Source: Candidatus Doudnabacteria bacterium
GTDB lineage: Bacteria > Patescibacteriota > Doudnabacteria > UBA920
Assembly (NCBI GenBank): GCA_963837465.1
Contig: CAWINB010000004.1
Location: forward strand, 458,853 to 522,852
Length of the DNA stretch: 64,000 bases
Direction: 5' to 3'
Every line of letters begins with the position of its first letter. Position 1 is the stretch's first letter. Made by a program: the position numbers and the translations under genes. Below the pieces are notes generated by a model. The model worked only from the letters and a program-made list of their open reading frames with translations, was not told the origin of the DNA and did not search any database. Of the stretch, positions 3,869 to 36,416 are shown one piece after another.

Positions 3869-4103
3869 GTCAAGGCCAAAAATATTGGCAATTTTCTTTG
3901 CCGCGGAACTCGTCGCCGCTCGGGCGGGCGCTAGTTCTTACACAGTACCCGCAGCAGAAAATTACCGATATTTTTCGGCCTTCGTTTTACCGGGTTAAAT
4001 AAATTTTTAAGTTTTTATCCTGTTGGTTGAACAAAATAAAAGCATATGGTAAGATAACGAATATGAAGATAGATTCCATAAATTAATTTTTTAAAGTCCT
4101 AAC

Positions 4104-4886
4104 ATGTCAAATAAAATCCTTGGTTTAGTCATTGCTTTAATTATTATTATCGGAGCGGCCATAGCAGGCTATTTTTACTGGCAGCAAACCCGGCCGTTAA
4201 AAGTTTCCACGCAAAACCCAAGCCTCATTCCGCCCCCTGATATGGATCGGCAAGCGCCCCAAGCTCCTGCCCAGCAGCCCGCGCAGGCCACATCAACCCC
4301 GGCAGCGTCTCCGGTTACGCGGAACAACACCGAATGCAAGCGTGATTTTAGCCAGGCGGAGCTGAACGAGAACGCCAGCATTAATATCCAGAATCGCGAA
4401 GTCGCCGTTGACGTGCAAAATTTTGGTACTATCACCCTGGGTTTTTACCCCAGCGACGCGCCTAAGGCTGTGGAGAATTTTTTGCGCTTGGCCGATGCCG
4501 GCTATTATGACTGTTTAACCTTCCATCGCGTGGCGGCCGGGTTTGTTATCCAGGGCGGCGACCCCAACGGCAACGGCAGCGGTGGAACCAGCGCTTATGG
4601 CGCCCCGTTTGCCGATGAACTTAATCCTGTCACCCAGAGCTATAAAACCGGCTATGTCGCCGGAGTGCTGGCCATGGCCAACAGCGGTCCGAACACAAAC
4701 GGCAGCCAGTTTTTTATTACCACGGCCAACGACACCCAGGCCCTGCAGCATCTTTACACAATTTTTGGCCATGTAATTTCCGGTATGGATGTAGCGGAAA
4801 AAATCGGCGCGTTGCAAACCAATCCGCCGGGAGACGGCATGCCGCTTACACCTGTAATAATGACGAGCGTGAAAATTATTAAATAG
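4104..4886 (+). CDS. ppiB: peptidyl-prolyl cis-trans isomerase, cyclophilin type, with N-terminal TM anchor and Pro/Gln-rich linker
   Basis: FHRVAAGFVIQGGDPNGNGSGG, GVLAMANSGPNTNGSQFFITT and the MIVPKF-type hydrophobic core. N-terminal hydrophobic helix. Confidence 0.9.
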   Translation: MSNKILGLVIALIIIIGAAIAGYFYWQQTRPLKVSTQNPSLIPPPDMDRQAPQAPAQQPAQATSTPAASPVTRNNTECKRDFSQAELNENASINIQNREVAVDVQNFGTITLGFYPSDAPKAVENFLRLADAGYYDCLTFHRVAAGFVIQGGDPNGNGSGGTSAYGAPFADELNPVTQSYKTGYVAGVLAMANSGPNTNGSQFFITTANDTQALQHLYTIFGHVISGMDVAEKIGALQTNPPGDGMPLTPVIMTSVKIIK

Positions 4887-4924
4887 CGTATAGCGGATAG
4901 TGATTGGCGTTTAGAAACAAAGTC

Positions 4925-4966
4925 CTAAACGCTAAACGCTAAACGCTAAACGCTAAACGCTAAAAC
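4925..4966. repeat. 7-bp tandem microsatellite (ctaaacg)x5 plus a partial unit; with upstream ggcgtttag it forms a hairpin after ppiB
   Basis: Directly visible tandem repeat. Confidence 0.8.
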
Positions 4967-4967
4967 T

Positions 4968-5462
4968 ATGGAAAGAACACTTGTTTTGCTCAAGCCCGAT
5001 GCCGTTGACCGCGGATTAATCGGCGAAATTATCACCCGCTTTGAAAAGGTTGGCCTTAAAATAGCCGGCCTTAAAATGGCTTGGCCGGAAAAAGAGCACG
5101 CGGCGAAACATTATACCGAAGACTTGGCCAAAAGGCGAGGCCAGCATGTGCGTGATTTAATGATAGAAATGCTGACTTCGGGCCCCGTGGTCGCCATTTG
5201 CCTGGAAGGTGTGGAAGCGGTGGAGCAAGCACGCAAAATGGTCGGTCCAACAGAGCCCAAGGCCGCGGCGCCCGGCACCATTCGCGGCGATTTTGCCCAC
5301 GTTTCTTTTAAGCATGCCGACAGCAAACAAATGGGCGTAATGAACCTTGTCCACGCCTCCGGCAACCTGGAAGATGCGGCCTTGGAAATTCCCGTTTGGT
5401 TTTCCGAAAGCGAACTGCATGGGCATAAGCCGGGGTATACTAAGCATACGATTGCTTATTAG
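4968..5462 (+). CDS. ndk: nucleoside diphosphate kinase (longer than typical, C-terminal extension)
   Basis: LVLLKPDAVDRGLIGEIITRFEKVGLKI, HASGN and the NDK fold motifs. Confidence 0.9.
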   Translation: MERTLVLLKPDAVDRGLIGEIITRFEKVGLKIAGLKMAWPEKEHAAKHYTEDLAKRRGQHVRDLMIEMLTSGPVVAICLEGVEAVEQARKMVGPTEPKAAAPGTIRGDFAHVSFKHADSKQMGVMNLVHASGNLEDAALEIPVWFSESELHGHKPGYTKHTIAY

Positions 5463-5474
5463 GTTTTAGGTTAT

Positions 5475-5504
5475 AAAAAACTCCCTCACTTAAGGGAGTT
5501 TTTT
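5475..5504. terminator. bidirectional rho-independent terminator between ndk (+) and rel (-)
   Basis: aaaaaactccctcacttaagggagtttttt: GC stem flanked by A-run and T-run. A second perfect palindrome tagtgtcaagggtcacccttgacacta lies at 5524-5550. Confidence 0.7.
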
Positions 5505-5547
5505 GATTTTGACAAATAGAGAATAGTGTCAAGGGTCACCCTTGACA

Positions 5548-7065
5548 CTATTTTTTCCTAAAAAACCTCGGCAAGCTTAAATCTTTCAGCTTCAGTTCCC
5601 TAACTCTCTGGATTATGCCTTTATCGTGCTCGTTAAGATAGTGGCGGATGCGGTTGCGCGCGTTGTGGGTTTTGGCGGCTTTGAGCCAGTCGCGCGAAAT
5701 TGTGGCCGGTTTTTTTGTTTTAATAATTTCCACCACGTCTTCGTTTTCCAGCTCGTCAAAAATACTGGCCATTTTGTGGTTAATTTTAACACCCATCATG
5801 TGATGCCCCAGGTCCGTGTGCACGGCAAAGGCGAAATCTATTACCGTGGCGCCGGCAGGCAAATCTTTAATGTCGCCTTTGGGCGTGAACACAAAAATCC
5901 GGTCGCGAAAAAAATCTATCTTTAAGCTTTCCAAAAACTCCTCGGGATTTTGGGCTTCTTCCTGCCAGGAGCGCAGCTCTTTTATCCATTTGGCCTGCAG
6001 CCGTTCGGGAAGATTATCCGGCTTGCCTTCCTCGGCGTAAAACCAGTGGGCCGCGACGCCGCGTTCGGCTTCCTCATGCATCAAGTCGGTGCGGATCTGG
6101 ATTTCAAACGTCTTGCCCTCCCGGCCAAAGACCGTGGTATGGATGCTCTGGTAGCCGTTGGGCTTGGGCGTGGCGATGAAATCTTTAATCCTGCCCGGCG
6201 CCGGCTGGAAGTGTTTGTGGATGACGCCCAAAGCCGCGTAACAGTCGGCCGTGGATTTGGTGATAACGCGCAGAGCGATGACATCATGGATTTTGCTTAA
6301 GTCGCCGCCGTATTTTTCCAGTTTTTTCCACAGCGAATAAATTCTTTTTACCCGGCCGGAAATATCCAGGTACTTAATACCCTCGCTCCTTAGGGTGTGC
6401 CCCAGATTTTTTTCCATAAGCTTGACGCTGTCCTGCCGGCTTTGCAGCTCCGCTTCCAAAAGTTCGCGCGTCTGTTCGTACTCCCTGGGGTAAACGACTT
6501 TAAAAGACAGGTCTTCCAAATCGTCTTTCCAGCCGCTAATGCCCAGGCGCGCGGCAATAGGGGCGTAAATTTCCAGGGTTTCATTGGCGACTTTAATCTG
6601 TTTTTCCGGGGCGATGAATTCCAAAGTCCGCATATTGTGGAGGCGGTCGGCCAGCTTAACCAAAATAACGCGAATGTCCTGGCTGGTGGCGATGAACAGT
6701 TTGCGCAGGTTTTCCACGTAAAATTTATCCTTGCTGTTTTTCATCCGCACCTGGCCGAGCTGGGTTACGCCGTCTATAAGCCGGGAGATTTCGTCGCCGA
6801 ACTGGCCCCGGATTTTTTCCAGTGAGACGCTGGTATCTTCGGGTACATCGTGCAGCAGAGTGGCGGCCAGGGTGGAAACATCGGGAAAAATTTGCCCTAA
6901 AATTACGGCTGACTGGCTGACATGCGTAAAGTAGTCCTCGCCGCTGCGGCGTTTCTGCCCGTGGTGGGACTGTTTGGCCAAATCATAAGCCTGTTTTAAA
7001 AGTTCGTTTTCCTGGGTGGAAAATTTATGGGGAATGGAATTTAAAAAATGGGTAAAATCATTCAT
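5548..7065 (-). CDS. rel: bifunctional (p)ppGpp synthetase/hydrolase, RelA/SpoT (Rel) family, short form (HD + synthetase + TGS; no ACT/regulatory C-terminus)
   Basis: HD motifs (HGQKRRSGEDYFTHVSQSAVIL, LLHDVPEDT), synthetase motifs (RVKRIYSLWKKL, DVIALRVI, GYQSIHTTV) and TGS (FVFTPKGDIKDLPAGATVIDFAFAVHTDLG). 505 aa, against roughly 730 for full-length Rel. Confidence 0.9.
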   Translation of the reverse strand: MNDFTHFLNSIPHKFSTQENELLKQAYDLAKQSHHGQKRRSGEDYFTHVSQSAVILGQIFPDVSTLAATLLHDVPEDTSVSLEKIRGQFGDEISRLIDGVTQLGQVRMKNSKDKFYVENLRKLFIATSQDIRVILVKLADRLHNMRTLEFIAPEKQIKVANETLEIYAPIAARLGISGWKDDLEDLSFKVVYPREYEQTRELLEAELQSRQDSVKLMEKNLGHTLRSEGIKYLDISGRVKRIYSLWKKLEKYGGDLSKIHDVIALRVITKSTADCYAALGVIHKHFQPAPGRIKDFIATPKPNGYQSIHTTVFGREGKTFEIQIRTDLMHEEAERGVAAHWFYAEEGKPDNLPERLQAKWIKELRSWQEEAQNPEEFLESLKIDFFRDRIFVFTPKGDIKDLPAGATVIDFAFAVHTDLGHHMMGVKINHKMASIFDELENEDVVEIIKTKKPATISRDWLKAAKTHNARNRIRHYLNEHDKGIIQRVRELKLKDLSLPRFFRKK

Positions 7066-15119: not shown

Positions 15120-15290
15120 ATGGGTGTTCCAAAAAAGCATAAGACCCGGAGTGGCCGGAATCAACGCAGGAGTCATCACGCTTTAAAAAAGGTTTCTTTC
15201 GCGGTATGCAAAAATTGCGGCCAGCCGGTTATGCCGCATTTGCCGTGCAAGAATTGCGGATTTTACAAGGGCAGAAAAATTACGAAGTAA
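15120..15290 (+). CDS. rpmF: 50S ribosomal protein L32 (bL32); absent from ORF track because it is under 60 aa
   Basis: Manual translation gives MGVPKKHKTRSGRNQRRSHHALKKVSFAVCKNCGQPVMPHLPCKNCGFYKGRKITK (56 aa). It matches L32 consensus MAVPKR..S..R...RRSH.AL....L..C..CG.....H..C..CG.Y.G. Confidence 0.9.
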   Translation: MGVPKKHKTRSGRNQRRSHHALKKVSFAVCKNCGQPVMPHLPCKNCGFYKGRKITK

Positions 15291-15380
15291 CAGCGCAAGC
15301 GGTTAGGGGTTAGCGTTTAGTAACCCAAAGCCCATCGTGGTTCCCTATACCCTAAACGCTATACCCTAAACGCTACTCCA

Positions 15381-15806
15381 ATGGCCAACAGACATCTCTC
15401 CCGCACCATTGCCATGCAGGCTTTGTTTGAGTGGGATTTCAACCAGCGGACCGAAGATTTAAAACAAATCATTACCCGCCAGGCCGACGAATCCGTCGGC
15501 CACAGCGAAGACGGGGGATTTGTTTTTGAATTGGCCGAAGGCGTAGCCAAAAATATTACAGCCATAGATGAAATTATTACCAAGCACGCTCCCGAATGGC
15601 CAATGGAGCAAATTCCGCCGGTGGACCGCAATGTTTTGCGCCTTGGCGTTTACGAGCTTATGTTTTTAAAGCAGGTGCCGCCAAAAGTGGCTATTAACGA
15701 AGCCGTGGAGCTGGGCAAGAGTTTTGGGGGTGAATCCAGCGGCAAATTTGTAAACGGGGTTTTGGGAACCCTTTATAAAGAACTGGATTTAAAACAGGAA
15801 AAGTAG
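15381..15806 (+). CDS. nusB: transcription antitermination factor NusB
   Basis: [17 protein letters not shown]...[12 protein letters not shown]...[10 protein letters not shown] matches the NusB family. Confidence 0.85.
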
Positions 15807-15843
15807 TTTAGGCCATTTTTATTGTGGTTAATTATCTTGATTT

Positions 15844-15868
15844 CAGCTTACTCTAAGCTGAATTTTTT
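15844..15868 (+). terminator. rho-independent terminator after nusB
   Basis: tcagcttactctaagctga followed by atttttt. Confidence 0.6.
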
Positions 15869-16122
15869 ATTAAAATATAAAAATTAGACCATTTCCCGAT
15901 AAACTTGGCTTTTAAATATGGCTTATTAATAAGGATTATCTGAATATCTAAAAATAAAGGCCAATTTTATAAAATAAATCTAAAAAAAACTAGAAATTTT
16001 AATAAAAAAGGCTTATAATAAATGTATAGCCTAAAAATTCCTGCTTAGTGAAACCATTTTGAAAATATAGACGTATAAATATAAGCACGAACATTAATAT
16101 AAATTTACGAAAGGAAAAAAAT

Positions 16123-16407
16123 ATGAATAAACTCCAGCTAACCGAACTATTAGCCGCTAAATTGGGCATTACCCATACCGAATGCGAAAGGTTTTTAAAC
16201 ACTTTTATCGGCATGGTTTACGAGCAGCTGCGCGGCGGCAATAAAGTTAATATTTCCGGCTTCGGACAGTTTAGCGTCAGTCACCGCGCTCCGCGCATTG
16301 GCGTTAACCCGAGAAATCCTTCCCAGCGCATTACCATACCCGAACTTAACACTCCCAAGTTCAAAGCCGGCGAAGCCTTTAAGGAAGCGGTAAAATTAAG
16401 GCCGTAG
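16123..16407 (+). CDS. hup: DNA-binding protein HU (HU/IHF family)
   Basis: MNKLQLTELLAAKLGITHTECERFLNTFIG...GFGQFSVSHRAPRIGVNPRNPSQRITIPELNTPKFKAG. Confidence 0.9.
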   Translation: MNKLQLTELLAAKLGITHTECERFLNTFIGMVYEQLRGGNKVNISGFGQFSVSHRAPRIGVNPRNPSQRITIPELNTPKFKAGEAFKEAVKLRP

Positions 16408-16444
16408 TTCACGTATTACGCGGATAAAACATATAACACGGATA

Positions 16445-16477
16445 CAAAAAAACCTCTTTTCAAAAAGAGGTTTTTTT
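16445..16477 (+). terminator. rho-independent terminator after hup
   Basis: aaaaaaacctctttttcaaaaagaggttttttt. Confidence 0.7.
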
Positions 16478-16516
16478 GATAGAATTGGTAAAGAATTTAT
16501 AAAGCTAATTTAGCAT

Positions 16517-16591
16517 GCGGGTATCGTATAACGGTTATTATCTCAGTTTTCCAAACTGATGATGCGGGTTCGACTCCCACTACCCGCTCCA
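16517..16591 (+). tRNA. tRNA-Gly (anticodon TCC), CCA encoded
   Basis: Manual fold: acceptor GCGGGTA/TACCCGC, anticodon stem TCAGT/ACTGA with loop TTTCCAA (TCC), T-arm GCGGG-TTCGACT-CCCAC (one C:A mismatch), 4-nt variable loop. Confidence 0.85.
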
Positions 16592-17056
16592 AGAGAATTA
16601 GAAAAAGTTGTACCAACTTTACAGGTAAAGTTTCCAGAATTTAGTAAAACCAATATAGAATTTACTGCGGTAAACTACAGAAGCAATCCCGGAGAAATCT
16701 TGGAAAAAGCTCGTAAAATTATCGGGCAATTAAAAGTGGAGTTTTCGGAATTTACCGAGAAAGATATCGAATATATTGTTATTGCCTACAAAGATAAAGC
16801 CGAGGGAAGACTGAAATCATTTCGTGAAAAAATACCCGATTTGCAAGCTAGTTTTCCTGATTTTGAAATTTGGATAATAAGATCCGTATTAGTTAATCAC
16901 CCGAATACCTATAAATTGTATTTGAAAAACCTAAAAATTAGAGTTGATGCCCTAAAAGCAAAGTACCCCTCTTTGGATTATAAAAATATTGCCGGTATTT
17001 GTGTTTTTAATAATCAAAAAGCGGAGCAAATATTAAAGGAAAGGTTTAAAGTTTAA
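16559..17056 (+). CDS. hypothetical protein with three internal ~40-aa repeats (xLxVxFxEFxxxxIEYxxIAY). Start uncertain: the only ATG lies inside the tRNA-Gly 3' half; an alternative TTG at 16700 has a GGAG RBS.
   Basis: ORF continuity. Repeat units VVPTLQVKFPEFSKTNIEFTAVNY, IIGQLKVEFSEFTEKDIEYIVIAY, IPDLQASFPDFEIWIIRSV. Confidence 0.35.
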   Translation: MMRVRLPLPAPRELEKVVPTLQVKFPEFSKTNIEFTAVNYRSNPGEILEKARKIIGQLKVEFSEFTEKDIEYIVIAYKDKAEGRLKSFREKIPDLQASFPDFEIWIIRSVLVNHPNTYKLYLKNLKIRVDALKAKYPSLDYKNIAGICVFNNQKAEQILKERFKV

Positions 17057-17067
17057 TTTTATAATTT

Positions 17068-17859
17068 ATGAAAAAATTATTATTTGTGTTTCCAATTGTT
17101 GCTCTCTTAGCCACAGGATGCAATGTCAGCAAATCATCGCCCACCAACCCAGTGTCCACAAATTCCACAACCAGCACAATAGCTGTTGGCCAGCCTTGTG
17201 ATTTCCATAGTATTCAGTCTTATGGAGCTGGCGGCTCCATTACCAATACCCATGGCCTACAATGTTATTTGTACGGCCCTGGAGGGGCAACCCGAAACGG
17301 TATATGGATAATGCCAAACAATGTTCCTGGATTAAGCTTCGCTGGTTACAATAGTGACCCAGCACTACCAGATATTTATGGAAATGCCCTAGCTGCAATC
17401 ACCCGTACTTGGCAATCTTATAGCAGCCCGGATAAATCAGTAAGCTTTAAATACTCCTCCCAATATTGGTATTTAGATGACAGCCAGTGGAGTTCAAGTC
17501 ATTCAATTAATTTGCAGGAACACGATTCAGGGCCTGTGGTTAATATTCAGTATTATCCTAATACAAATTTTCAGGATAGTATGGAAGGGCAAATAACCAG
17601 TAGCGACAGATTTCCAGGAGGCACCGATTCTTTAAATAATAATTTAGAAGTATTGGCGGACTTTCAGTTAAATGGCAAACAGGCCTACGCAATAATAAAA
17701 TTACCGCAAGTGAATTTAGCCGAAGGCGAGACCCCGGACCAAGTAACTGTTTACATTGTTGGCAAGAATGATTACCTAACCGTTACTTATTCAAGATACC
17801 GAGAAACCAACCAAGACCTGCCAACAGAAGCTTTAATTAGCTCCATCCAAATAAAGTAA
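17068..17859 (+). CDS. lipoprotein, function unknown
   Basis: Signal peptide and lipobox MKKLLFVFPIVALLATGC. Mature part Ser/Thr/Gly-rich. Confidence 0.6.
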   Translation: MKKLLFVFPIVALLATGCNVSKSSPTNPVSTNSTTSTIAVGQPCDFHSIQSYGAGGSITNTHGLQCYLYGPGGATRNGIWIMPNNVPGLSFAGYNSDPALPDIYGNALAAITRTWQSYSSPDKSVSFKYSSQYWYLDDSQWSSSHSINLQEHDSGPVVNIQYYPNTNFQDSMEGQITSSDRFPGGTDSLNNNLEVLADFQLNGKQAYAIIKLPQVNLAEGETPDQVTVYIVGKNDYLTVTYSRYRETNQDLPTEALISSIQIK

Positions 17860-25565: not shown

Positions 25566-25928
25566 ATGTCCATAAAAGATTTTAAGGAAAAATATGCTTG
25601 GCAAAAAGCTCATGAGTTGACGCTTTTGGTTTATAAATTAACCAGGAATTATCCAAAAGATGAATTATATGGACTTGTCAGTCAAAGTCGGAGAGCTGCG
25701 GTTTCCATTCCATCTAATTTGGCTGAAGGCTTTAAGCGCCGTGGTATGCAGGAAGATGCCCGTTTTTGCAATATTGCCCAAGCTTCGTTGGAAGAGTTGA
25801 AATATCAGTTGCTTTTAGCCAAAGATTTGGAATATGTTACGCATGCGGAATTCGATAACGCGGAAAAATTATGTCAGGAAACCGCAAAACTGATTCATTT
25901 ATGGATTAAAAGCAAGGATAAGAAATAA
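25566..25928 (+). CDS. four-helix-bundle protein (23S rRNA intervening-sequence protein family, TIGR02436)
   Basis: KEKYAWQKAHELTLLVYKLTRNYPKDELYGLVSQSRRAAVSIPSNLAEGF...EYVTHAEF. Flanked by imperfect inverted 'aaggata' repeats at 25527-25565 and 25945-25975. Confidence 0.85.
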   Translation: MSIKDFKEKYAWQKAHELTLLVYKLTRNYPKDELYGLVSQSRRAAVSIPSNLAEGFKRRGMQEDARFCNIAQASLEELKYQLLLAKDLEYVTHAEFDNAEKLCQETAKLIHLWIKSKDKK

Positions 25929-26896: not shown

Positions 26897-27050
26897 CGCT
26901 CGTACCGCGAAGCTTTAGCGAAGCAGTGGTCGGCCAATTCGACACAGGTGGAAAACCTACTTGGCTTTGGTTAAAGAGATTTTTGAATGCTTTAGGAGTG
27001 GTGGCATGCCCGTACCTATGTTTGTGTAAATACAAACGTCATTTTTATAT

Positions 27051-28508
27051 TTAGTTTCCCTGCACTTCAAACCCAAAGCCCTCAGTAGTGGCCGCAGGAG
27101 TATTAGCATTCAAAGTAATTTGGAAGGTAAAATTACCACTTTGGGTAGGTGTTCCAACAATAAAGAGTCGGCAAGTGTCAGTTGGGTCAGGTTGTCCAGT
27201 TATGTTAGCCAAGCTAGTAGGACCTCCAAGACTTAGGCCGGGTGCCAAACCTTGCGAAGTGGTTTGTCCATAATAAGAAGCGCAGGGAGTGAAATCCACG
27301 CTTCCTTTATAAGACTGCCCTAGTATAGCTACTGGTAAATTTGGATTAATAAATTTATAGCCAGATGGGCTTGTATTATTGGATACAGTATTATCAGTTT
27401 GGGTGTTCGTCGATTGTGGGATCGGGGTAGTATAATTACTAAAATTTGATGGCTGCTGATATTGCGTTTGCATTGCTCTCTTCATATAAATGCCAGGCAG
27501 AGCAAACATAAGATAGAAAATACCAACGACAAAAGCAATTAGGATTAATGACATTATTATTATCAAAAATTTACTTGATTTATCTGAAGGTATTTCAGAC
27601 TCACCTTTGATAGATTTTAAGTTTGCGTAGAGCTGATAACAATAGGCAGCAAATACTGGAGGGAATAGGGCATATAGAACTATTTCTACTAGCAATAATA
27701 TTAGAGTACTAAATAAAGCCGCGGCCCCTTTTAAGAAAGTTGAGAACAATATGATTAACAATAATACCGCAAGCCAGAGTATAATTAAGCACATCCCAAT
27801 AAACAGCAATCGCCAAAAAATCGGCCACCAGTAACCGCGGGTATAGTCGAAGCTGCGCCTGGCTGCGGGCAATGCTTTGGCGTTATCCCCAACCACAATG
27901 AACGTAGAAAGACAAAAACGAACACTTAAATAGGCGGTGGAGATTATACAAAGCAACCCTATAAAATATCCGAGATAGACGGGTATGGCGACTCCATAAA
28001 TTAAGGAAAATACTACTGTTGCCGCCACATATAAAATAATAACTCCGGTACTGGCTAACCCCGCAACAACAGCAGCCCCAAAAAATGAACCGATTTTATG
28101 TGATGATTGCTTAAAAGATTCTTTAAAACTAATATTTTCACCTGCTCCTTTGATTGCAAATATTAAGGCCGTTTGAGACCAAAAAGTAATAAACAAAACT
28201 GCAAGATAAACTAGTACCGCCAATATTATCCCCGCAAGTGCCGTTGCGCTACTAAATCCTGCGCTAAGCTTTAACGCTAAAAATAGAAAACTTGTGGCAC
28301 TAAAACCGCCGATTACTACAATAAAATAACCGAGCATTAAAGCGATTGGCAGCAATGAAATAAAAATTAAAACCCAAAAACGGCTTTTAAAGATTCCCCA
28401 AGCTTGCTTGAATATTACAGTAGGGCCTGGTAATTTTGCACCCTGCATACTCTTTGATTCAACCGGGGAAGGCTGGGAGGTAGGTAGGTTTATGTCATTA
28501 TTTTCCAT
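27051..28508 (-). CDS. polytopic membrane protein with C-terminal extracytoplasmic Ser/Thr/Gln-rich domain, function unknown
   Basis: About 8 hydrophobic helices after FKQAWGIFKSRFWVLIF, then a secreted-looking C-terminal region. Confidence 0.5.
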   Translation of the reverse strand: MENNDINLPTSQPSPVESKSMQGAKLPGPTVIFKQAWGIFKSRFWVLIFISLLPIALMLGYFIVVIGGFSATSFLFLALKLSAGFSSATALAGIILAVLVYLAVLFITFWSQTALIFAIKGAGENISFKESFKQSSHKIGSFFGAAVVAGLASTGVIILYVAATVVFSLIYGVAIPVYLGYFIGLLCIISTAYLSVRFCLSTFIVVGDNAKALPAARRSFDYTRGYWWPIFWRLLFIGMCLIILWLAVLLLIILFSTFLKGAAALFSTLILLLVEIVLYALFPPVFAAYCYQLYANLKSIKGESEIPSDKSSKFLIIIMSLILIAFVVGIFYLMFALPGIYMKRAMQTQYQQPSNFSNYTTPIPQSTNTQTDNTVSNNTSPSGYKFINPNLPVAILGQSYKGSVDFTPCASYYGQTTSQGLAPGLSLGGPTSLANITGQPDPTDTCRLFIVGTPTQSGNFTFQITLNANTPAATTEGFGFEVQGN

Positions 28509-28647
28509 GGTTTTTGTTTCTAAAGCTTAATTTTGTTATATTATACACCTTTTTGGTTATAAATAAAACAAAAAAGTTTTCCAGTGCCAGATGGCCAAGC
28601 AACTTGCCTCTGGAAAACTTTTTATTTTTTATATCAGATTAGTTTTC

Positions 28648-29385
28648 TTAAACAGGTTTTTTATATTGGTGGTTAAACTTTAGACCCCTTTGCAGGCCAG
28701 TAAGAGTTATTGTCTTAGGTACATAGTGAACAGCTACTTCTTCCCAACCAATCTTAAGTTGTTCAAAGAACCGCATTACTTCCTCAAAGCAATTTTTATA
28801 TTTGCCACTGACGACCCAAGCATGCGGAACTTGCGCCCAATCTATTACATTATATATGGTACTGGATTTTGGATGGTTAAAGCTATGTCGTATTTCTTGC
28901 AACTCTGAAATTAAAGCCGAATAACCTTTATTATTAATTAAATCCGGCTTATTGATTATTTTCGTTATTATGTGCCTAAGTTTTTGACTTAATTCTTTTT
29001 TTTCAAGTTGGGCTAATATGGCTGGAGCGCTATTTGCGTATACATATCTTAAAATATTTAAGCTATAGTATTCAAATGTCAGATATGTATGTATTACCAA
29101 GTTAAACCCTTCTTTATAAGAAGCAGTATTTAACTCCGCGTCAGCTATTAACCGAGAATTAGTTTTTGCATTTGGTTCCGTTTGTAAAATCTTTTGTTCA
29201 ATATCTTTAAGTTTTTCATAGGCATCGTTTGCAAAGTTAAAATGCAATGTCCAGTGTATTGGCCAACCAAAATTTATTACCCCCATTTGATGGTGCAAAA
29301 CAGTCTGGTTAATCATAACCGTAGACCCTTCTTTATGGGGATGAGCTAGGTTTTGGTCGCTTTCGGATTTAATTTGTTTACCCAT
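28648..29385 (-). CDS. hypothetical protein with C-terminal Rx4H (EIRHSFNH) HEPN-like motif
   Basis: 245 aa, predicted all-alpha. Last gene of the AT-rich minus-strand block, 25 nt downstream of the NTase gene. Confidence 0.4.
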   Translation of the reverse strand: MGKQIKSESDQNLAHPHKEGSTVMINQTVLHHQMGVINFGWPIHWTLHFNFANDAYEKLKDIEQKILQTEPNAKTNSRLIADAELNTASYKEGFNLVIHTYLTFEYYSLNILRYVYANSAPAILAQLEKKELSQKLRHIITKIINKPDLINNKGYSALISELQEIRHSFNHPKSSTIYNVIDWAQVPHAWVVSGKYKNCFEEVMRFFEQLKIGWEEVAVHYVPKTITLTGLQRGLKFNHQYKKPV

Positions 29386-29410
29386 AGTTTTTAGCTACTT
29401 AATAATTCAT

Positions 29411-30184
29411 TTACCAAATTGCTTGCTTCCAAGAGCCATTTAAGGTATCTACGGCCGCCTGCTGAATTGTCTTTTTTTCATCTGCCGTCAGTTCATCTGA
29501 GACAATATTACCGGAATTAGATGGGTCAACCATAGTTTTATCAACAAAATCATTTGCCAGATAATTCATAACAGTAACGAAATTAGCAGAGGGGCTACCG
29601 CCTAATAATGATTTACCCTTTAATGCTTCAATAACAGACAATTCTAAGTAAAATGAGGGAAAACTTAAGTCCCTAAGCTTTCTCCAAATTTTAATTGCTT
29701 TTATGTCCAATATACGGCCTGAATTTTTTACATAACTTATGTGTTGGTCAATATTTGTTTTTGTCCAACTTTGAGCTTTTCTTTTCCAAACCGAATGGTC
29801 ATATCCCAAAATATGATGCTTTACACCCGCTACAATATCTACTTTTAATCCGCCATGATTAATCCCCAAAGAAACATTTTGCTCTCTAGCAGTATAACCT
29901 GCGCCGTTGAGCCTATTTCGAAGTGTTTTGTATACGTTTTCAAGTGTGTTGTAATCACTAACTGAGGGGTCGAGAGAAATAAATAGATCTATATCAGTTG
30001 TGCCAGTGATTCCTGTTCCTTTAGCTAGGGATCCAGACGGTTTTATGGTATATGAAAAGCCATTTGCCCAGGCAAAAATATGAGGGTTTAGTTCATTTAT
30101 TTTATCCTGAACCAAATAAGTAATGTTGGGTGTATGCATCACCACTATTTGCCGAATATAATTATCGCTCATAGAATTTTTCAT
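29411..30184 (-). CDS. polymerase-beta-superfamily nucleotidyltransferase (minimal SMODS/CD-NTase-like core + helical C-terminal domain)
   Basis: PSGSLAKGTGITGTTDIDLFISL (hG[GS]-x11-DhD) and a downstream third acidic strand GGLKVDIVAGV. Overlaps the upstream gene by 23 nt. Confidence 0.6.
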   Translation of the reverse strand: MKNSMSDNYIRQIVVMHTPNITYLVQDKINELNPHIFAWANGFSYTIKPSGSLAKGTGITGTTDIDLFISLDPSVSDYNTLENVYKTLRNRLNGAGYTAREQNVSLGINHGGLKVDIVAGVKHHILGYDHSVWKRKAQSWTKTNIDQHISYVKNSGRILDIKAIKIWRKLRDLSFPSFYLELSVIEALKGKSLLGGSPSANFVTVMNYLANDFVDKTMVDPSNSGNIVSDELTADEKKTIQQAAVDTLNGSWKQAIW

Positions 30185-30680
30185 AACTCGTAGTTACCAT
30201 TGAGGTTACTACATCATTAAGTAATCTTCCCCTAAAATTTGTAACTGCTGTATGCCTTTTCCCATCTAATTTTTTCATTTGATCCGTAGGAATTTTATCT
30301 TTGTCATACGGAGCATAAACAACTAATGCGCACTTGTCTGGTTTGATATCCAAAATTTTATCAATCTGCTCTGTCCAGTCATGCCAAAATACCAGATACA
30401 CTGAAGCTTTTTCCGCTCTTCCGAGATCATCATCTCCAGTAATAAGTATTATATTTTTTTCTTTGAATAACCCCGAATCACAGAGCAAGCCCTGTAAGCT
30501 GGTACTGTTATCCCCCTTAGCAAAAATAGCAATTTTTCTTTTTGCTAAACCATTCCCTAACCTATAAAGAGCGGGAGAAATACCCCTAACCCATAAAACA
30601 ATTCCCCAAATAATCACACCCATAAGAACAATTGTGTCGGCAACGCCTACTATAGCAATAATTATTATTAAAATATTCAT
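30162..30680 (-). CDS. membrane-anchored protein: ~30-residue hydrophobic N-terminus (1-2 TM) + C-terminal Rossmann/flavodoxin-like alpha/beta domain (TIR/SLOG-like guess)
   Basis: MNILIIIIAIVGVADTIVLMGVIIWGIVLWV then alternating beta-strands KIAIFAKGD, NIILITGDDD, VYLVFWHDWTEQ, CALVVYAP. Confidence 0.5.
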   Translation of the reverse strand: MNILIIIIAIVGVADTIVLMGVIIWGIVLWVRGISPALYRLGNGLAKRKIAIFAKGDNSTSLQGLLCDSGLFKEKNIILITGDDDLGRAEKASVYLVFWHDWTEQIDKILDIKPDKCALVVYAPYDKDKIPTDQMKKLDGKRHTAVTNFRGRLLNDVVTSMVTTSYEKFYER

Positions 30681-30962
30681 ATTTTTGAATTAACTTTCTT
30701 TAAAATTAAAACCAGCAACCTATAAATGAAGTTGCTGGTCTTGATTTCCAAAATAAGATTTGGCGAAGCTAAAAACTGCAGTCGTTATAGCTGTAGATTG
30801 GCAGTTTTGTTCTGCTGATTTTGTTTTTGCGCGAATGTAGACATAACCACTATTTTGTGGTTGCCTCTTATGACTAGCCATATTAATTTTGACTTTAATT
30901 TTTTGGTTTGCATTTTAACTAAGTGCATTTTAGCAAAAATTAGCAGACTCGTCAAGCGAGTG

Positions 30963-31601
30963 CTAATAAGTAATATTTCCACCGCTTGCCTTGATTAGCT
31001 GAAGTAGCCTTGTTAATTCACTATGTTCAGGCGGGGAAACTTTTATATCGGTCATTACTTCGTCAACCATAGTTTTCATATCCAGAAGTCTTATTTCGCA
31101 ACCAGTTAGGTTTTGCTTAAACAAACTATAATTTTCCCATTGACCTCTTAATTCCTGGTCAAATTTTACGCAGATAACATAAAAAGTAAAGCAATCATCG
31201 CCTGTCTGTTTCTTAACTTCTTGCTTTAAAGCTTCTGACCAGTCTTTTAAAGCCACCTCCCTAAATATTTTTTTGGTTTTAACGAAATCTGCTTCAATTT
31301 CTTTAATACAATTTTTTATATTTAACCCCGTATTCCAACTTTTACAACTTGCTACGCAAACTCTTGGCAGATTGTTTTGTTTAGGTTGAGGGTGTACAGC
31401 AATAATATCAATATCAGAAGATACGGCAAATGCCGAACCTTTTTTATTTGGCCTATATCTTACATTGTGCTGAGTAAAGTAGCCTTTGTATCTAAAATAC
31501 TCTTCGCCTAATTGTTCTAAAATATCGTTGACCATAAAAAGCAATAATTTGATTTGAGATGCGACGCTCCTCTCCAACCTTGTTGGCTTGGTTGAGGGCA
31601 A
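30963..31601 (-). CDS. hypothetical protein (KKGSAFAVSSDIDIIAV acidic strand; possible degenerate NTase or nuclease fold)
   Basis: 212-aa ORF in the same AT-rich block. No confident family. Confidence 0.45.
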   Translation of the reverse strand: MPSTKPTRLERSVASQIKLLLFMVNDILEQLGEEYFRYKGYFTQHNVRYRPNKKGSAFAVSSDIDIIAVHPQPKQNNLPRVCVASCKSWNTGLNIKNCIKEIEADFVKTKKIFREVALKDWSEALKQEVKKQTGDDCFTFYVICVKFDQELRGQWENYSLFKQNLTGCEIRLLDMKTMVDEVMTDIKVSPPEHSELTRLLQLIKASGGNITY

Positions 31602-31631
31602 AATTACTACCTAATTATTTTGGAATTTTTA

Positions 31632-31862
31632 TTACCAAACCCAACCTGCAAATTGGTTAGGCTGATGGGTTATTGCCATATTGCAAAGGCTGACGCCGTT
31701 TATAAAATTATAGTTTGGATTACTTGTCTCGTTGACTTTCGCATTTGATTGGTTGCATTCAATATACTCATTAAATTTTTGATTTTCGATGAAGCTGTAT
31801 GCAAACCAGGCTACCACTAGTAGTAACATAATTTTGAACCAGTTATTTTTGACCCAGGTCAT
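31632..31862 (-). CDS. small N-terminal-TM protein
   Basis: 76 aa, WFKIMLLLVVAWFAYSFI helix, 31 nt upstream of the 212-aa gene. Confidence 0.35.
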   Translation of the reverse strand: MTWVKNNWFKIMLLLVVAWFAYSFIENQKFNEYIECNQSNAKVNETSNPNYNFINGVSLCNMAITHQPNQFAGWVW

Positions 31863-32155
31863 ATTTTGTTCGTTAATGTTCTTGGTGCCGGAGCGGATAA
31901 CACAAAGCCCGCCGCGGAATTCAGCGAACGGCGTGCGGCGTTAGACCGCGCAGATAACGCTACTGTGGATCAGATCGCTACAATTGGAAAACTTTTACAG
32001 AAACCTACACAGAGTTATACATCAGCGAAGTCAGAAGAGAAAAAACGTTTTCTTGTGAAGTCGTTGGTTGGAAAACTTTCTTATGACGGAAAAAAGATAA
32101 CAATCCATTGGTTAAAACAGTATGAAGTGATCGCGAAAAGACCTAAGAATGACCT

Positions 32156-32229
32156 TGGTCGGGCTGCTGGGAATCGAACCCAGTCTATCTGCTCCCAAAG
32201 CAGACGTACTACCGGTATACTACAGCCCG
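32156..32229 (-). tRNA. tRNA-Pro (anticodon TGG), CCA encoded
   Basis: Reverse complement cgggctg-ta-gtat-accggta-gtac-g-tctgc-tttggga-gcaga-taga-ctggg-ttcgatt-cccag-cagcccg-a-cca. Perfect cloverleaf, G37. Confidence 0.9.
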
Positions 32230-32309
32230 ACGTTTTAAGACGTTTTTTTAGTTGAATCTCAAGCGGTTTTTAATATTTCCGCCAATATCAACCTTAATTA
32301 TCTATCTTT

Positions 32310-32465: not shown

Positions 32466-35400
32466 ATGGTAAAAAGACCGGGCTTATTCGGAAAGGGATG
32501 GAGTTTTTTTCCGGCGTTGTTTTTTGGCGGCCTTGTTGTCCTTTCGTCGCTGCTGTTTTTGCCCAAAGCGGCCTATGCCTCCGGAGACCGCTATTGGGTT
32601 GGGGGAACTGGAAATTGGTCCGACACTTCCCATTGGTCGGCAATCAGCGGCGGATCGGGCGGCGCGAGCGTGCCGGACAACTCGACCAACTGTTATTTTG
32701 ACGCAAGCTCATTTTCCGGCAGCGGCCAAACCGTAACTTTGGATGAAAGCGGCGGGTGCGATACTATGGATTGGACCGGAGCGACAAACTCCCCGACATT
32801 CACGATGAGCAACCCGCTGACCATCGGCGGGTCTTTCACGCTGACAAGCGGCATGACCGTCAACGGTCTTTCCCCAGGCATCACTTTCAACTCCCTGGGC
32901 ACGAACACAATTACTTTGGCCGGACACGCTTTGCCACTTATCAATGTTGAGATGATTTTTGCGGGCGGGGGTACCTGGACGCTCCAGGATGCCTGGAATA
33001 TGCCCAGCCTTCAGGTATATATGGCACAAGGTACACTCAATACCAATAACCAAAATTTTCTGGTTAGGCAGATATACGATAATACCAATAACGATGGCGG
33101 CGGCCTTGATGACCCCGGTAACGTTACGGTGAACTTCGGTTCTTCAAACGTTACCATAATTGATACTCTGGCTCTGGCCTTAGACAGTACGACCTTGATA
33201 GGCACTTCATCGAACATAACCATAGCCCCCGATGTTGATAATACGATATTTTTTGTCAACGGTACCGCTCAATTTAACAGTTTTCACGCGGAGGCGGGAA
33301 CCCCATCCGAACCCACCAGTAATAGACTGCAAACCTTTGGAACAATCTTTGCCGATACCCTGACCCTTGACCCCATCGGAACCTCCACCTGGCCGGTGGG
33401 GGCATTTGAGACGGATGACTTAGTTTCAAATGGCAATTCAGGGAACCTGGTCAACATCAGCGGAAACTTTCAAGCTGAGGCTCAAATATCCGCAGATTAT
33501 TTGGATATTACCGATTCCACCTGCTTGGGCGTTACACCCTGCTATGCCGGGACGCATAGTGTCGATGGGGGCGGGAATGCCAACTGGATTTTTACAGCTC
33601 CCCCTCCTCCGGACGTAATCTCCGTTACCGGACAAAACCCCGCTTTGGCAACCACCAGCACGCCCTCAATAACCATTAATGGTTCGGGGTTCGCCCCAAC
33701 GCCTACGGTTACTGTGGGCGGCACAGCCGCGACCAATGTTACATATGTTGACGCGGGCACCCTTACTGCCACAGCTCCGGCAAAAGGGCTTGGTAGTTAT
33801 GATGTGGTGGTAACCAACCCTGACACCAGCACCGCGACTTGTGCCGGTTGTATGCTTTACGTCAGCGCGCCCGGCGTGCCCACTGATGCAACCTCGACCC
33901 CCGGTAACGACCAAGCCTCCCTGTCATGGTCTGCTCCTGTTTCAGATGGCGGCTCTCCTCTTATAGACTATCTGGTGCAGTACAAACTAAGCGCTTCATC
34001 AACTTTTGACAGTACCTTTGACACTAACTCAACGAGCACAATGACAATTGTCACCGGCCTGATGAACGGATCAAGCTACGACTTTGAGGTTGTGGCGGAA
34101 AACGCCGCTGGCAGTTCAACTCCCTCTAGCATTGTTTCGGCTTCGCTCGCGGCAACGGTTCCGGACCCACCCACTTCGGTTTCCGCCACGGCCGGCAACG
34201 GGCAGGCGGTTGTATCATTCTCGGCTCCGGACAATGACGGTGGCTCTCCGATTACTGCGTATACTGTAACCAGTAATCCGGGCAACATTACGGCAACAGG
34301 TTCTTCCAGTCCCATTACCATAACCGGCCTGACTATTGGCGTTGGTTATACTTTTACTGTTACAGCCGGCAACACGTTGGGGGACTCCGTTTCCTCGAGT
34401 CCTTCAGGCACCGTGACCCCGTTTGTACCCTACGCGGCTTCGGCGCTTTTGGGCCAGGTTGATGGCAGCGGTAACCCGCTGTGGACAGACTCTGGCTCCA
34501 ATAACTCTTCTGGCTCGGTTAACCTGCAGGGATTCCATAACCCTTCTGATGTAACTGTTGACTCTGTGAACCATCGCCTGTTTGTTTCCGATACGGGCAA
34601 CAAGCGAGTTTTAGTATTTAGTCTTGATACAACCGACAACATTGCCTCAACCACTGCTTTGTACGCGCTGGGAAGCGGCATTAGCAGCTTTGAGCCGGAA
34701 TATCTTTCCTATGACCCAATAAACCAGCGTTTGTTTGTCGGCGATGACGGCAATCAGACAGTTGAGGTATTTAACGTCGCCACCTCCACCATCAGCGACA
34801 GCGAGAGTCCGGATAATACCCTGAACTATCTGACTGATAATGGGGCTGTTCCTGCTGGTTTAGCTTACGATTCCGTAAACCAGCGTTTGTTTGTCGGCGA
34901 TGACGGCAATCAGACAGTTGAGGTATTTAACGTCGCCACCTCCACCATCAGCGACAGCGAGAGTCCGGATAATACCCTGGACTACCTCGCTGATAGTGGG
35001 GCTGCTCCTATTGGCCTGGCTTACGATTCCGTAAACCAGCGTTTGTTTGTCGGCGATTATAATAATGAGACAGTCTACGCTTTTAACGTCGCCACCTCCA
35101 CTATCAGCAACAGCGAGAGTCCGGACAATACCCTGGACTACCTCGCTGATAGTGGGGCTGCTCCTATTGGCCTGGCTTACGATTCCGTAAACCAGCGTTT
35201 GTTTGTCGCTGATAATAATAATGACACAACCTGGGCTTTTAACACCTCCACCTCCACCATAAGCGACAGCGAAAGTCCTGAAATTTACTTACCAAACGGC
35301 GCAAGAGGAGCGGCTACTCAAAGCAGCTTTCTTGAAAACGCAGGTCTTGCTTATGACAGCGGGAATTACCATCTGTTTTTGGTTGACCAGAATGCCAACC

Positions 35401-36416
35401 GGGTCATGCAGTTTAACCTCATCAAACTTACAACCGGCAGTCTTGCTTCGGCAACTGTAGGTTCAGCCTATTCCCAAACTTTAACCACTGCTTTCAGCCA
35501 AGGCATAGTTGCCTTCTCCCTTTATGCCAGTTCTACTCTGCCTTCCGGTTTGGTCTTAAATTCTTCCACGGGTGTTATTTCCGGCACTCCCGCATCCCCG
35601 GGAACGTATTCTTTTGTGGTTGAAGCCGATGATACTATTGGTGGAAACGGAAATTTCTTTGACCGCCAGCCATACAGCATGACCGTTTCCGCGCCCAGCC
35701 TCGGAGGAGCAGGCGGCGGTGGAGGTGGCGGCGGTGTATCTTACGGCAGCGGGAACTACACCCCTCCCGCCAACCAACAGCCAGCCTCCAGCCTTCCAAC
35801 TTCCTCTCCCGCGTCATCCCTGCCTTTTATGCCTTCAGCCCCTGTGTCTGCTGCCCCAAACCTAAAACTCATCAATAACAAAGGCACCTTTTACTTCATT
35901 GACAACGGCATTAGCTATGGTATTGCCAACCCGGGTATCCTAAACAGTTACGGCTTAACCTTTAAGGACGCGGTTTCTCCCACAGCGCAAGACTTGTCCC
36001 TGCCACAGGGCGGTCTTCTCACCCCTGCCGACGGTTCCCTGGTTAAAACTTTAAAAGATCCCACAGTTTATTTTATCAGTAACCAAACCAGGTATGGTTT
36101 TACTTCAGCCAAAGTCTTTTTGGCTTTAGGCTTTAAGTTCTCCTCTGCCCTGGTGGTCACTACTCCCGAACTCCAGGCCTTGGCCGCAGGCCCTGTTATT
36201 AAAGATGCTACAGCCGCCCACCTGCCCGGCACGGACATAAATTATAAAGGCACCATCTACTACATAGGCAGAGACTATTTGAGACACCCCTACCTGTCTT
36301 TAGCTGTTTACAACTCCTGGAATATTGCCAATAATTTTAGTGCCGTTGTCCCTGCCAACGCTGCAGATTTAAAGCTGGGAGCGGGAAGCGCCGTAAGCCA
36401 GAGAACTTTAAACTAA
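32466..36416 (+). CDS. giant secreted surface protein (1316 aa): signal peptide, beta-helix-like Gly/Thr/Asn repeats, IPT/TIG-like and FN3 domains, NHL/YVTN-type beta-propeller repeats, Ig-like domain, Gly/Pro/Ser linker, C-terminal triple ~55-aa repeat module
   Basis: Signal MVKRPGLFGKGWSFFPALFFGGLVVLSSLLFLPKAAYA. FN3 (ASLSWSAPVSDGGSPLIDYLVQY). Repeated LAYDSVNQRLFVGDDGNQTVEVFNV units. Three C-terminal repeats (GTFYFIDNGISYGI..., TVYFISNQTRYGFTSAKVFLALGF..., GTIYYIGRDYLRHPYLSLAVYNSW...). Confidence 0.8.
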   Translation: MVKRPGLFGKGWSFFPALFFGGLVVLSSLLFLPKAAYASGDRYWVGGTGNWSDTSHWSAISGGSGGASVPDNSTNCYFDASSFSGSGQTVTLDESGGCDTMDWTGATNSPTFTMSNPLTIGGSFTLTSGMTVNGLSPGITFNSLGTNTITLAGHALPLINVEMIFAGGGTWTLQDAWNMPSLQVYMAQGTLNTNNQNFLVRQIYDNTNNDGGGLDDPGNVTVNFGSSNVTIIDTLALALDSTTLIGTSSNITIAPDVDNTIFFVNGTAQFNSFHAEAGTPSEPTSNRLQTFGTIFADTLTLDPIGTSTWPVGAFETDDLVSNGNSGNLVNISGNFQAEAQISADYLDITDSTCLGVTPCYAGTHSVDGGGNANWIFTAPPPPDVISVTGQNPALATTSTPSITINGSGFAPTPTVTVGGTAATNVTYVDAGTLTATAPAKGLGSYDVVVTNPDTSTATCAGCMLYVSAPGVPTDATSTPGNDQASLSWSAPVSDGGSPLIDYLVQYKLSASSTFDSTFDTNSTSTMTIVTGLMNGSSYDFEVVAENAAGSSTPSSIVSASLAATVPDPPTSVSATAGNGQAVVSFSAPDNDGGSPITAYTVTSNPGNITATGSSSPITITGLTIGVGYTFTVTAGNTLGDSVSSSPSGTVTPFVPYAASALLGQVDGSGNPLWTDSGSNNSSGSVNLQGFHNPSDVTVDSVNHRLFVSDTGNKRVLVFSLDTTDNIASTTALYALGSGISSFEPEYLSYDPINQRLFVGDDGNQTVEVFNVATSTISDSESPDNTLNYLTDNGAVPAGLAYDSVNQRLFVGDDGNQTVEVFNVATSTISDSESPDNTLDYLADSGAAPIGLAYDSVNQRLFVGDYNNETVYAFNVATSTISNSESPDNTLDYLADSGAAPIGLAYDSVNQRLFVADNNNDTTWAFNTSTSTISDSESPEIYLPNGARGAATQSSFLENAGLAYDSGNYHLFLVDQNANRVMQFNLIKLTTGSLASATVGSAYSQTLTTAFSQGIVAFSLYASSTLPSGLVLNSSTGVISGTPASPGTYSFVVEADDTIGGNGNFFDRQPYSMTVSAPSLGGAGGGGGGGGVSYGSGNYTPPANQQPASSLPTSSPASSLPFMPSAPVSAAPNLKLINNKGTFYFIDNGISYGIANPGILNSYGLTFKDAVSPTAQDLSLPQGGLLTPADGSLVKTLKDPTVYFISNQTRYGFTSAKVFLALGFKFSSALVVTTPELQALAAGPVIKDATAAHLPGTDINYKGTIYYIGRDYLRHPYLSLAVYNSWNIANNFSAVVPANAADLKLGAGSAVSQRTLN
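34724..35300 (+). repeat. near-identical 156-bp (52-aa) tandem repeats, 3 full + 1 partial copy, inside the giant surface-protein gene
   Basis: Period 156 bp verified (copies start 34724, 34880, 35036, 35192). Copies differ at only a few positions. Confidence 0.85.

Follow-up and report, generated by a model that had tools for sequence, protein, structure and literature searches.

A type I CBASS pair with a receiver-like membrane effector in a small AT-rich island beside a tRNA-Pro gene

Introduction

Among the described antiphage systems, the one closest to the locus studied here is the type I cyclic oligonucleotide-based antiphage signalling system (CBASS) with a '1TM' (single transmembrane helix) effector, a class of the scheme of Millman et al. 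(2020) as it is rendered in a source citing that work. Our locus is an AT-rich block of five minus-strand genes, which lies beside a tRNA-Pro gene in a stretch of 64,000 nucleotides from contig CAWINB010000004.1 (this whole stretch is called the window throughout).

A second close relative is Cam2, described from 26 type III CRISPR loci with occasional NucC or SAVED-CHAT neighbours (Hoikkala et al. 2024, PMC11229360). It consists of a transmembrane (TM) helix and a receiver-like (REC-like) domain, was predicted to sense cyclic tri-adenylate (cA3) and to disrupt the membrane, and was flagged as uncharacterised. Cam1, Csx23 and Cap15, summarised in the same paper, likewise join one or more TM helices to a small cytoplasmic sensor and kill via the membrane. 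A further comparison is with the HEPN RNases of restriction-modification (R-M) and abortive-infection systems, whose signature is Rx4-6H with a polar residue (N, D or H) after the arginine (Anantharaman et al. 2013, PMC3710099).

An initial annotation of the window had proposed that the five genes form an undescribed conflict module, which would use either a CBASS-type second messenger or a toxin-antitoxin pair of a nucleotidyltransferase (NTase) and a HEPN protein. We find CBASS-type signalling in a foreign island, but the system is one already catalogued, and the five genes do not make up a single unit. Quite likely, in our judgement, an integrative element that has since decayed left the block next to tRNA-Pro as a small defence island of foreign composition, with a type I CBASS as its core and the other three genes as independent passengers.

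Results

The cyclase and effector pair

The five open reading frames (ORFs) are encoded on the minus strand at 31862-31632 (76 aa), 31601-30963 (212 aa), 30680-30162 (172 aa), 30184-29411 (257 aa) and 29385-28648 (245 aa). We compared their products with PADLOC, Pfam, NCBIfam and PHROGs. The 172-aa and 257-aa proteins were identified as a pair through PADLOC, and the other three collections gave weak matches only; the 245-aa, 212-aa and 76-aa proteins had no match in any of the four.

The 257-aa protein (29411-30184; 253 aa from the start at 30172 used in the public gene call) is a minimal cGAS/DncV-like nucleotidyltransferase (CD-NTase), that is, a CBASS cyclase. It matched the PADLOC cyclase model PDLC00803 with an E of 5.3e-77 over 252 of the 253 model positions. 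The Pfam matches to SMODS (E 1e-4) and NTP_transf_2 (E 8e-3) were both weak, and so were those to the NCBIfam models CBASS_cyclase_a and CBASS_cyclase_b; the latter reached an E of 1.7e-12, and the score of 47 bits is far below the NCBIfam equivalog cutoff of 200. Its best solved relative was CdnC of E. coli (6p80; E 3.4e-6), and residues G51-S52, D64, D66 and D116 of the window protein align with the catalytic GS, DxD and D residues of that enzyme. At about 255 aa, the cyclase stands at the small end of the family when compared with typical type I CBASS.

The 172-aa protein (30162-30680) is the '1TM' effector. It matched the PADLOC model 'Effector, 1TM' (PDLC00664) end to end with an E of 7.5e-60, and also the model 'C3a59' (PDLC01057; E 2.3e-51). 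An AlphaFold2 model built from a 40-sequence alignment had a predicted local distance difference test score (pLDDT) of 80. It shows an extended helix at the N-terminus (residues 2-46), the hydrophobic part of which reaches about residue 30, followed by a five-stranded alpha/beta domain of the CheY/REC type, which would lie in the cytoplasm. Foldseek searches of the model against the PDB returned weak flavodoxin-like matches only (such as DNPH1 and MilB; E ~3e-3), and neither sequence nor fold matched any solved effector. The effector and cyclase ORFs overlap by 23 nt when the longest starts are used and by 11 nt with the 253-aa start.

Much of the initial annotation was borne out at this level. 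The five ORFs, the tRNA-Pro and the terminator are all present where they had been placed, as are the 23-nt overlap and the motifs that had been picked out (GS-x11-DID, VDIV, the SSDIDIIAV strand and EIRHSFNH). The NTase had rightly been called a minimal SMODS/CD-NTase, to judge from its SMODS and PDLC00803 matches and its CdnC-aligned residues, and the 172-aa protein a TM-anchored flavodoxin-like effector, with one TM helix and a REC-like domain in PADLOC and in the model; the PADLOC matches also agree with the second-messenger grammar of the CBASS type that had been suggested. What had been claimed in addition, that the module is undescribed, does not hold, as PADLOC already contains CBASS models that the cyclase and the effector match from end to end.

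Next, we examined the neighbourhoods of effector homologs by a genome scan that retained one genome per species and yielded 80 loci. When the immediate neighbours of the effector were clustered, 53 of them fell into a single CD-NTase-like cluster (255-499 aa), and PADLOC assigned representative neighbours to the cyclase models PDLC00803, PDLC00823 and PDLC00785, with one TRIP13. In eight loci from metagenome-assembled genomes of Patescibacteria (L005-L011 and L017), a cyclase of the same subfamily as ours, with 72-79% identity, directly follows the effector. None of the 80 loci contained a homolog of the 245-aa, 212-aa or 76-aa protein. As the pair recurs and the other three genes do not accompany it, we concluded that the conserved unit is the two-gene pair, and that this pair is a type I CBASS. 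The window locus shares with that class an operon of just two genes, one for a CD-NTase and one for a single-TM effector, the end-to-end model matches, and the lack of Cap2/Cap3 and of HORMA/TRIP13, the other three island proteins having no PADLOC match; it differs from other type I CBASS in its host, apparently a Patescibacteria-like organism with a small genome.

In the loci of the closest CBASS relatives (L007-L011 and L017), we also observed a divergent LexA-like gene (LexA_DNA_bind and Peptidase_S24) upstream of the effector, at ~2900-5950, followed by a DNA methyltransferase gene and a TdeIII restriction enzyme gene (in L008, for example, at 5318-5950, 3723-5297 and 2939-3721 on the minus strand). 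The LexA-S24 protein is fused to the methyltransferase in L017 (4311-5873). In L012, L013, L015, L047, L051 and L060, too, the effector is preceded by a gene of the LexA-like type. These neighbours hint at SOS-type control of CBASS in the relatives; the gene is absent in the window.

The effector family and Cam2

The effector belongs to a large family of more than 800 homolog clusters, with 65-75% identity across Patescibacteria, Verrucomicrobiota, Chloroflexota, Bacteroidota and others, and none of these clusters carries a Pfam domain or a name. Its invariant residues include D57 and D101, together with R40, R48, K113, R142, H143, R150 and R152. Strands 1 and 3 each carry one of the two aspartates at their C-terminal end; in our own reading of the alignment and the model, these sites probably correspond to the positions of the acidic pocket of receiver domains.

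Members of this family were also found outside CBASS. Genes matching PDLC00664/PDLC01057 close Cas10-Cmr3-Cmr4-...-Cmr6 operons of type III-B in L027 and L077; the operon that such a gene closes in L035 is of type III-D. Two further homologs are located in RefSeq-annotated type III-B loci on plasmids of Gloeothece verrucosa PCC 7822, where both are annotated as hypothetical: WP_013334946.1 (L115, NC_014534.1, 7914-8423) and WP_013334741.1 (L116, NC_014533.1, 7956-8489). Each lies between the cas10/cmr genes and cas1/cas2, and a TIR-domain gene stands beside one of them.

From these locations and from the domain arrangement, the CBASS '1TM' effector, the CRISPR model 'C3a59' and Cam2 appear to be one family. 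Like Cam2, the window effector has an N-terminal TM helix and a C-terminal REC-like domain; the location in type III CRISPR loci holds for the family but not for the window copy, which is paired with a CD-NTase instead of Cas10. PMC11229360 describes Cam2 from CRISPR loci only, whereas most of the effector loci in our analysis are CBASS. The effector resembles Cam1, Csx23 and Cap15 in its overall layout and differs from them in the fold of the sensor, which is REC-like here, CARF in Cam1, a novel tetrameric domain in Csx23 and a beta-barrel in Cap15. Our literature search found no experimental paper on a 1TM/REC effector, nor on the product of this cyclase or the mechanism of the effector.

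Composition and borders of the island

We then compared the block with the rest of the window. The block 28648-31862 has a GC content of 0.351, against 0.443 for the whole window, and is the lowest 3.2-kb stretch in the 64 kb (3.2-kb windows have a standard deviation of 0.036), so the AT-richness that had been judged by eye is real. The composition is uniform, all five genes lying between 0.33 and 0.36. The right flank exceeds 0.5, whereas the left neighbour gene (27051-28508) has an intermediate value of 0.396, and the left edge of the island is therefore less sharp than the right one.

The right border is tRNA-Pro(UGG) on the minus strand at 32156-32229 (found by ARAGORN; 63.5 bits with the Rfam tRNA model), and a scan of 26.5-33 kb with Rfam placed this tRNA alone above threshold. 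The left border is marked by a bidirectional intrinsic-terminator hairpin of 13 bp with A/T runs on each side (28572-28622), which has a folding energy of −23.8 kcal/mol (z = −4.0). The block thus combines a position at the 3' end of a tRNA gene with a deviant composition, as do tRNA-associated islands. The genes that flank it encode a membrane protein, a transaldolase and the tRNA.

Between the 76-aa gene and the tRNA, the plus strand carries an ORF (31866-32255) that overlaps tRNA-Pro on the opposite strand and whose first 94 codons resemble the C-terminal tail of large serine recombinases. The stretch that they resemble spans residues 399-471 of a serine recombinase of 507 aa in L070 (tblastn E 0.002; pairwise BLASTP E 5e-6, 29% identity over 76 aa), and no match was found in Pfam, phages or plasmids. 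The segment 31875-32156 is probably what is left of the C-terminal part of a gene for a large serine recombinase, and it reads into the 3' end of the tRNA. Weak but collinear, this tail is evidence for a decayed integrative element. An independent Logan contig (L003) stops inside 31866-32255, which could reflect strain variation there.

Promoter, leader and terminator

The region between the 212-aa gene and the effector (30700-30955, minus strand) is a leader with its own promoter. We found a near-consensus sigma-70 promoter at 30955-30927 (TTGACG-17-TAAAAT with the extended −10 TG; 10 of 12 matches), which would give a leader of ~190 nt. This leader contains an orphan ORF of 53 codons that had no homologs, and a 14-bp hairpin with a U-run at 30742-30707, which lies 27 nt before the start codon of the effector. 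The minimum-free-energy and the centroid structures both contain this hairpin, and the leader region folds with z = −3.9. It could be an attenuator or terminator that limits the expression of toxic CBASS genes, or a small RNA gene. Downstream of it, we detected no terminator between the effector, cyclase and 245-aa genes up to the hairpin at 28572-28622.

The 245-aa protein

The last gene before the terminator begins 25 nt after the cyclase and encodes a helical protein of 245 aa (28648-29385, minus strand), which belongs to a rare family and carries the motif R-[D/H/N]-x3-H-P (R166...H171-P172). A word-indexed search returned only the protein itself and one homolog of 43% identity, whose gene overlaps the 3' end of a gene for a 1078-aa Type ISP/IIG R-M enzyme; an exhaustive HMMER search extended the family to 156 cluster representatives, mostly of ~240 aa. 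In an alignment of 71 of these sequences, G35, R78, R166, H171 and W190 are invariant and P172 is present in 70. In 68 of the 71, R166 is followed by D (37 sequences), H (20) or N (11), and the N-terminus is conserved as basic. The family thus shows both the Rx4-6H spacing and the polar residue of the signature of PMC3710099. The family profile found nothing in the PDB, in plasmids or in phages.

We read by eye 22 metagenomic loci of these homologs (L084-L105) and found heterogeneous neighbourhoods with a defence flavour. We saw no CD-NTase or 1TM effector beside the homologs, either in L001-L002 by tblastn or in L084-L105 by eye and clustering. Also by eye, we noted a type I HsdR-like C-terminus upstream of the homolog in L085. 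In L101-L103 a methyltransferase and a putative restriction enzyme were observed near the homolog, and a TIR-like protein of ~158 aa with a C-terminal TM helix is encoded ~30 nt after it (L101, 6774-7253; L102, 6774-7247; L103, 4371-4844).

The 245-aa protein shares with the HEPN RNases of R-M and abortive-infection systems the invariant R-x4-H and R-M neighbours, and a low-confidence structure model suggests the same for an all-helical make-up and for a motif placed where a helix ends; it differs from them in the additional invariant G35, R78 and W190 and in matching no HEPN profile. From its sequence, it is likely a member of the HEPN superfamily, and most likely it would work on its own as an abortive-infection toxin with HEPN-type RNase activity, encoded by a gene that settles at the end of defence operons. 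We offer only tentatively, as a possibility that we would not bet on, a broader proposal: that it founds a new family of HEPN-type RNases of ~240 aa, whose genes come last in otherwise unrelated defence operons (CBASS in the window; elsewhere R-M of Type ISP and type I, and TIR-TM). Such an RNase would be a toxin that aborts infection either by itself or as a back-up, and it might fire when the upstream system is blocked.

The 212-aa and 76-aa proteins

The 212-aa ORF (30963-31601, minus strand) probably starts at M23, because its homologs align from residues 21-23, so that the coding sequence would be 31535-30963 (190 aa). Its family comprises 84 members of ~195 aa. When 34 members were searched against Pfam, nine matched NERD and seven matched Mrr_cat; the best match was that of P0031 to Mrr_cat (E 2.3e-7, above the cutoff), the window protein itself being below the Pfam threshold. 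E29, D63, D65, C86 and K87 are invariant in the family. The likeness to NERD/Mrr_cat lies in the matches of the homologs to both models and in the conservation of E29, D63/D65 and K87 in the 212-aa protein; the differences are a serine at the second acidic position of the (D/E)xK motif (S-C-K) and a C-terminal half that is left unmatched. The homologs are found in islands with R-M genes, HNH nucleases or an integrase. The protein may thus be described as a NERD/Mrr-like protein with a putative PD-(D/E)xK nuclease fold, which probably is a standalone passenger.

The 76-aa ORF (31632-31862, minus strand; 65 aa from 31829 in the public gene call) encodes an orphan small membrane protein, which had no homolog in any of the fetched loci.

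Other features of the window

Outside the island, we noted three features. A plus-strand gene beyond the tRNA (32466-36416) encodes a secreted-looking protein of 1316 aa with fibronectin-like segments and several near-identical internal repeats (QRLFVGDDGNQTVEVFNVATSTISDSESPDNTL); its GC content of 0.52 contrasts sharply with that of the adjacent island. At 25566-25928 on the plus strand, amid housekeeping genes, a low-GC gene (0.375) encodes a 120-aa '23S rRNA intervening sequence protein' (PF05635, E 4e-36) with a weak bAvd-like match. A second low-GC stretch (0.35-0.40) is at 15250-17500, around tRNA-Gly (16517-16591); its ORFs encode nusB-like, HU/IHF-like and two unknown proteins and, by eye, include no obvious mobile or defence genes.

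Discussion

The most likely course of action of the pair, proposed by analogy with characterised CBASS, Cam1, Csx23 and Cap15, would be as follows. Upon phage infection, the minimal CD-NTase would synthesise a cyclic oligonucleotide. Our best guess for this ligand is a cyclic trinucleotide such as cA3, since the effector family is common to type III CRISPR, Cam2 has been tied to cA3 effectors, and among solved cyclases CdnC is the nearest to ours. The signal would bind the cytoplasmic REC-like domain of the single-pass effector, which may then oligomerise through its TM helix and breach or depolarise the membrane, so that the infected cell would die or arrest and the infection would be aborted. 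The 245-aa, 212-aa and 76-aa genes would stand outside this CBASS, as independent passengers that accumulated in the island.

Several observations weigh against our reading of the block as a CBASS core with passengers in an island left by an integrative element. No direct repeats flanking the island were found, and the window holds no copy of the tRNA 3' end within 3 mismatches per 25 nt, so there is no attachment repeat; by the same search, the weak tRNA-3'-like stretch at 26927-26948 that the initial annotation had put forward as such a repeat is rejected. Exact-protein look-ups of the flanking genes matched only the same genome, and no relative with an empty site was retrieved. The recombinase remnant is supported by a single weak match, that in L070. 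The effector gene is separated from the one good promoter by a strong hairpin, which clouds how the operon is expressed. The agreement of the effector with the published Cam2 is one of description. The close spacing of the 245-aa gene behind the cyclase, with no terminator between them, makes a functional link possible at this locus. The HEPN-like motif that had been seen in the 245-aa protein is real, its Rx4H being invariant in 71 of 71 sequences, but the HEPN assignment found no profile behind it, as none of the 71 members matched any model of Pfam, PADLOC or NCBIfam, the HEPN models included, at E <= 0.01. Finally, the AlphaFold2 model of this protein, built from two sequences, has a pLDDT of 43, too poor for a fold search; it consists of helices throughout, and R166 stands where one of them (152-168) ends.

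The functional link just mentioned could take the form of a CBASS variant with three genes, where the protein of 245 aa would be a locus-specific accessory, either a second effector or a regulator that responds to the same signal or to failure of the effector. The apparent co-transcription, with a terminator common to the three genes, speaks for it, and so does the overlap of the only close 245-aa homolog with a Type ISP R-M gene, which suggests that the family tends to supply the terminal gene of defence operons. We nevertheless find this variant unlikely, as the 245-aa gene is missing from every one of the 80 effector loci, the loci of its homologs showed no cyclase or effector match (L001-L002 by tblastn, L084-L105 by reading and clustering of the neighbours), and profile searches found no recognisable nucleotide-sensor domain in the protein. 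The same two genes, adjacent on one strand with a 25-nt gap, could also be read as a toxin-antitoxin pair of the minimal nucleotidyltransferase (MNT)-HEPN kind, where the 257-aa NTase would neutralise the 245-aa RNase by nucleotidylation and the membrane protein would not be involved. The invariant Rx4H motif agrees with this, and NTase-HEPN pairing is a known theme (PMC3710099). The NTase is, however, a full-length CBASS cyclase, which in all related loci is accompanied by the effector and not by the 245-aa gene. Moreover, MNT antitoxins are much smaller than an NTase of the 257-aa type. No recognised NTase lies beside the 245-aa homologs in ~20 loci, whose neighbours were judged by eye and by clustering. 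That this family is found there with R-M or TIR genes and not with NTases speaks against the toxin-antitoxin option of the initial annotation, which we regard as very improbable.

The pair itself could work in the opposite sense, as an inverse guard like Panoptes, in which the product of a constitutive minimal cyclase would keep the effector off until phage sponges or phosphodiesterases deplete the signal and release it. Panoptes is defined by an mCpol (Cas10-palm) cyclase, and in its type II a TM effector is kept switched off by cA3 (PMC13577387). The unusually small size of our cyclase (~255 aa), which has no Cap2/3 or HORMA/TRIP13 partner, would suit such a guard, and its effector family is predicted to sense cA3, as in Panoptes type II. 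The window cyclase is a pol-beta CD-NTase, not mCpol, and the effector also occurs in type III CRISPR operons and TRIP13-neighbour loci, both of them activated by infection, which fits an effector that is switched on by its ligand; the guard is, to our mind, improbable. The least probable of the readings, and one that we give almost no weight, is the view of the initial annotation that all five genes are a single novel integrated conflict module. The genes are uniform in GC, share a strand and are tightly packed between the terminator and the tRNA. However, the parts never co-occur in the loci examined, where each family is found in different contexts and the pair recurs without the other three in relatives, and the promoter with its terminator-like hairpin splits the first two genes from the last three.

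We therefore retain the reading of a foreign island with a two-gene CBASS core. As core CBASS is already in the defence catalogues, the locus reveals no new kind of immunity, and its residual novelty lies in an uncharacterised REC-fold (Cam2-like) effector and an unannotated Rx4H family. Members of the latter, a rare family that no database models, carry the HEPN catalytic motif in its textbook form and are found in defence neighbourhoods. The effector family plugs into at least three CD-NTase subfamilies, TRIP13-neighbour loci and type III-B/III-D CRISPR, and is an attractive target for asking whether a receiver domain can sense cyclic oligonucleotides. For the organism, the finding means that a genome of <1 Mb, apparently of the Patescibacteria, retains a compact abortive-infection island.

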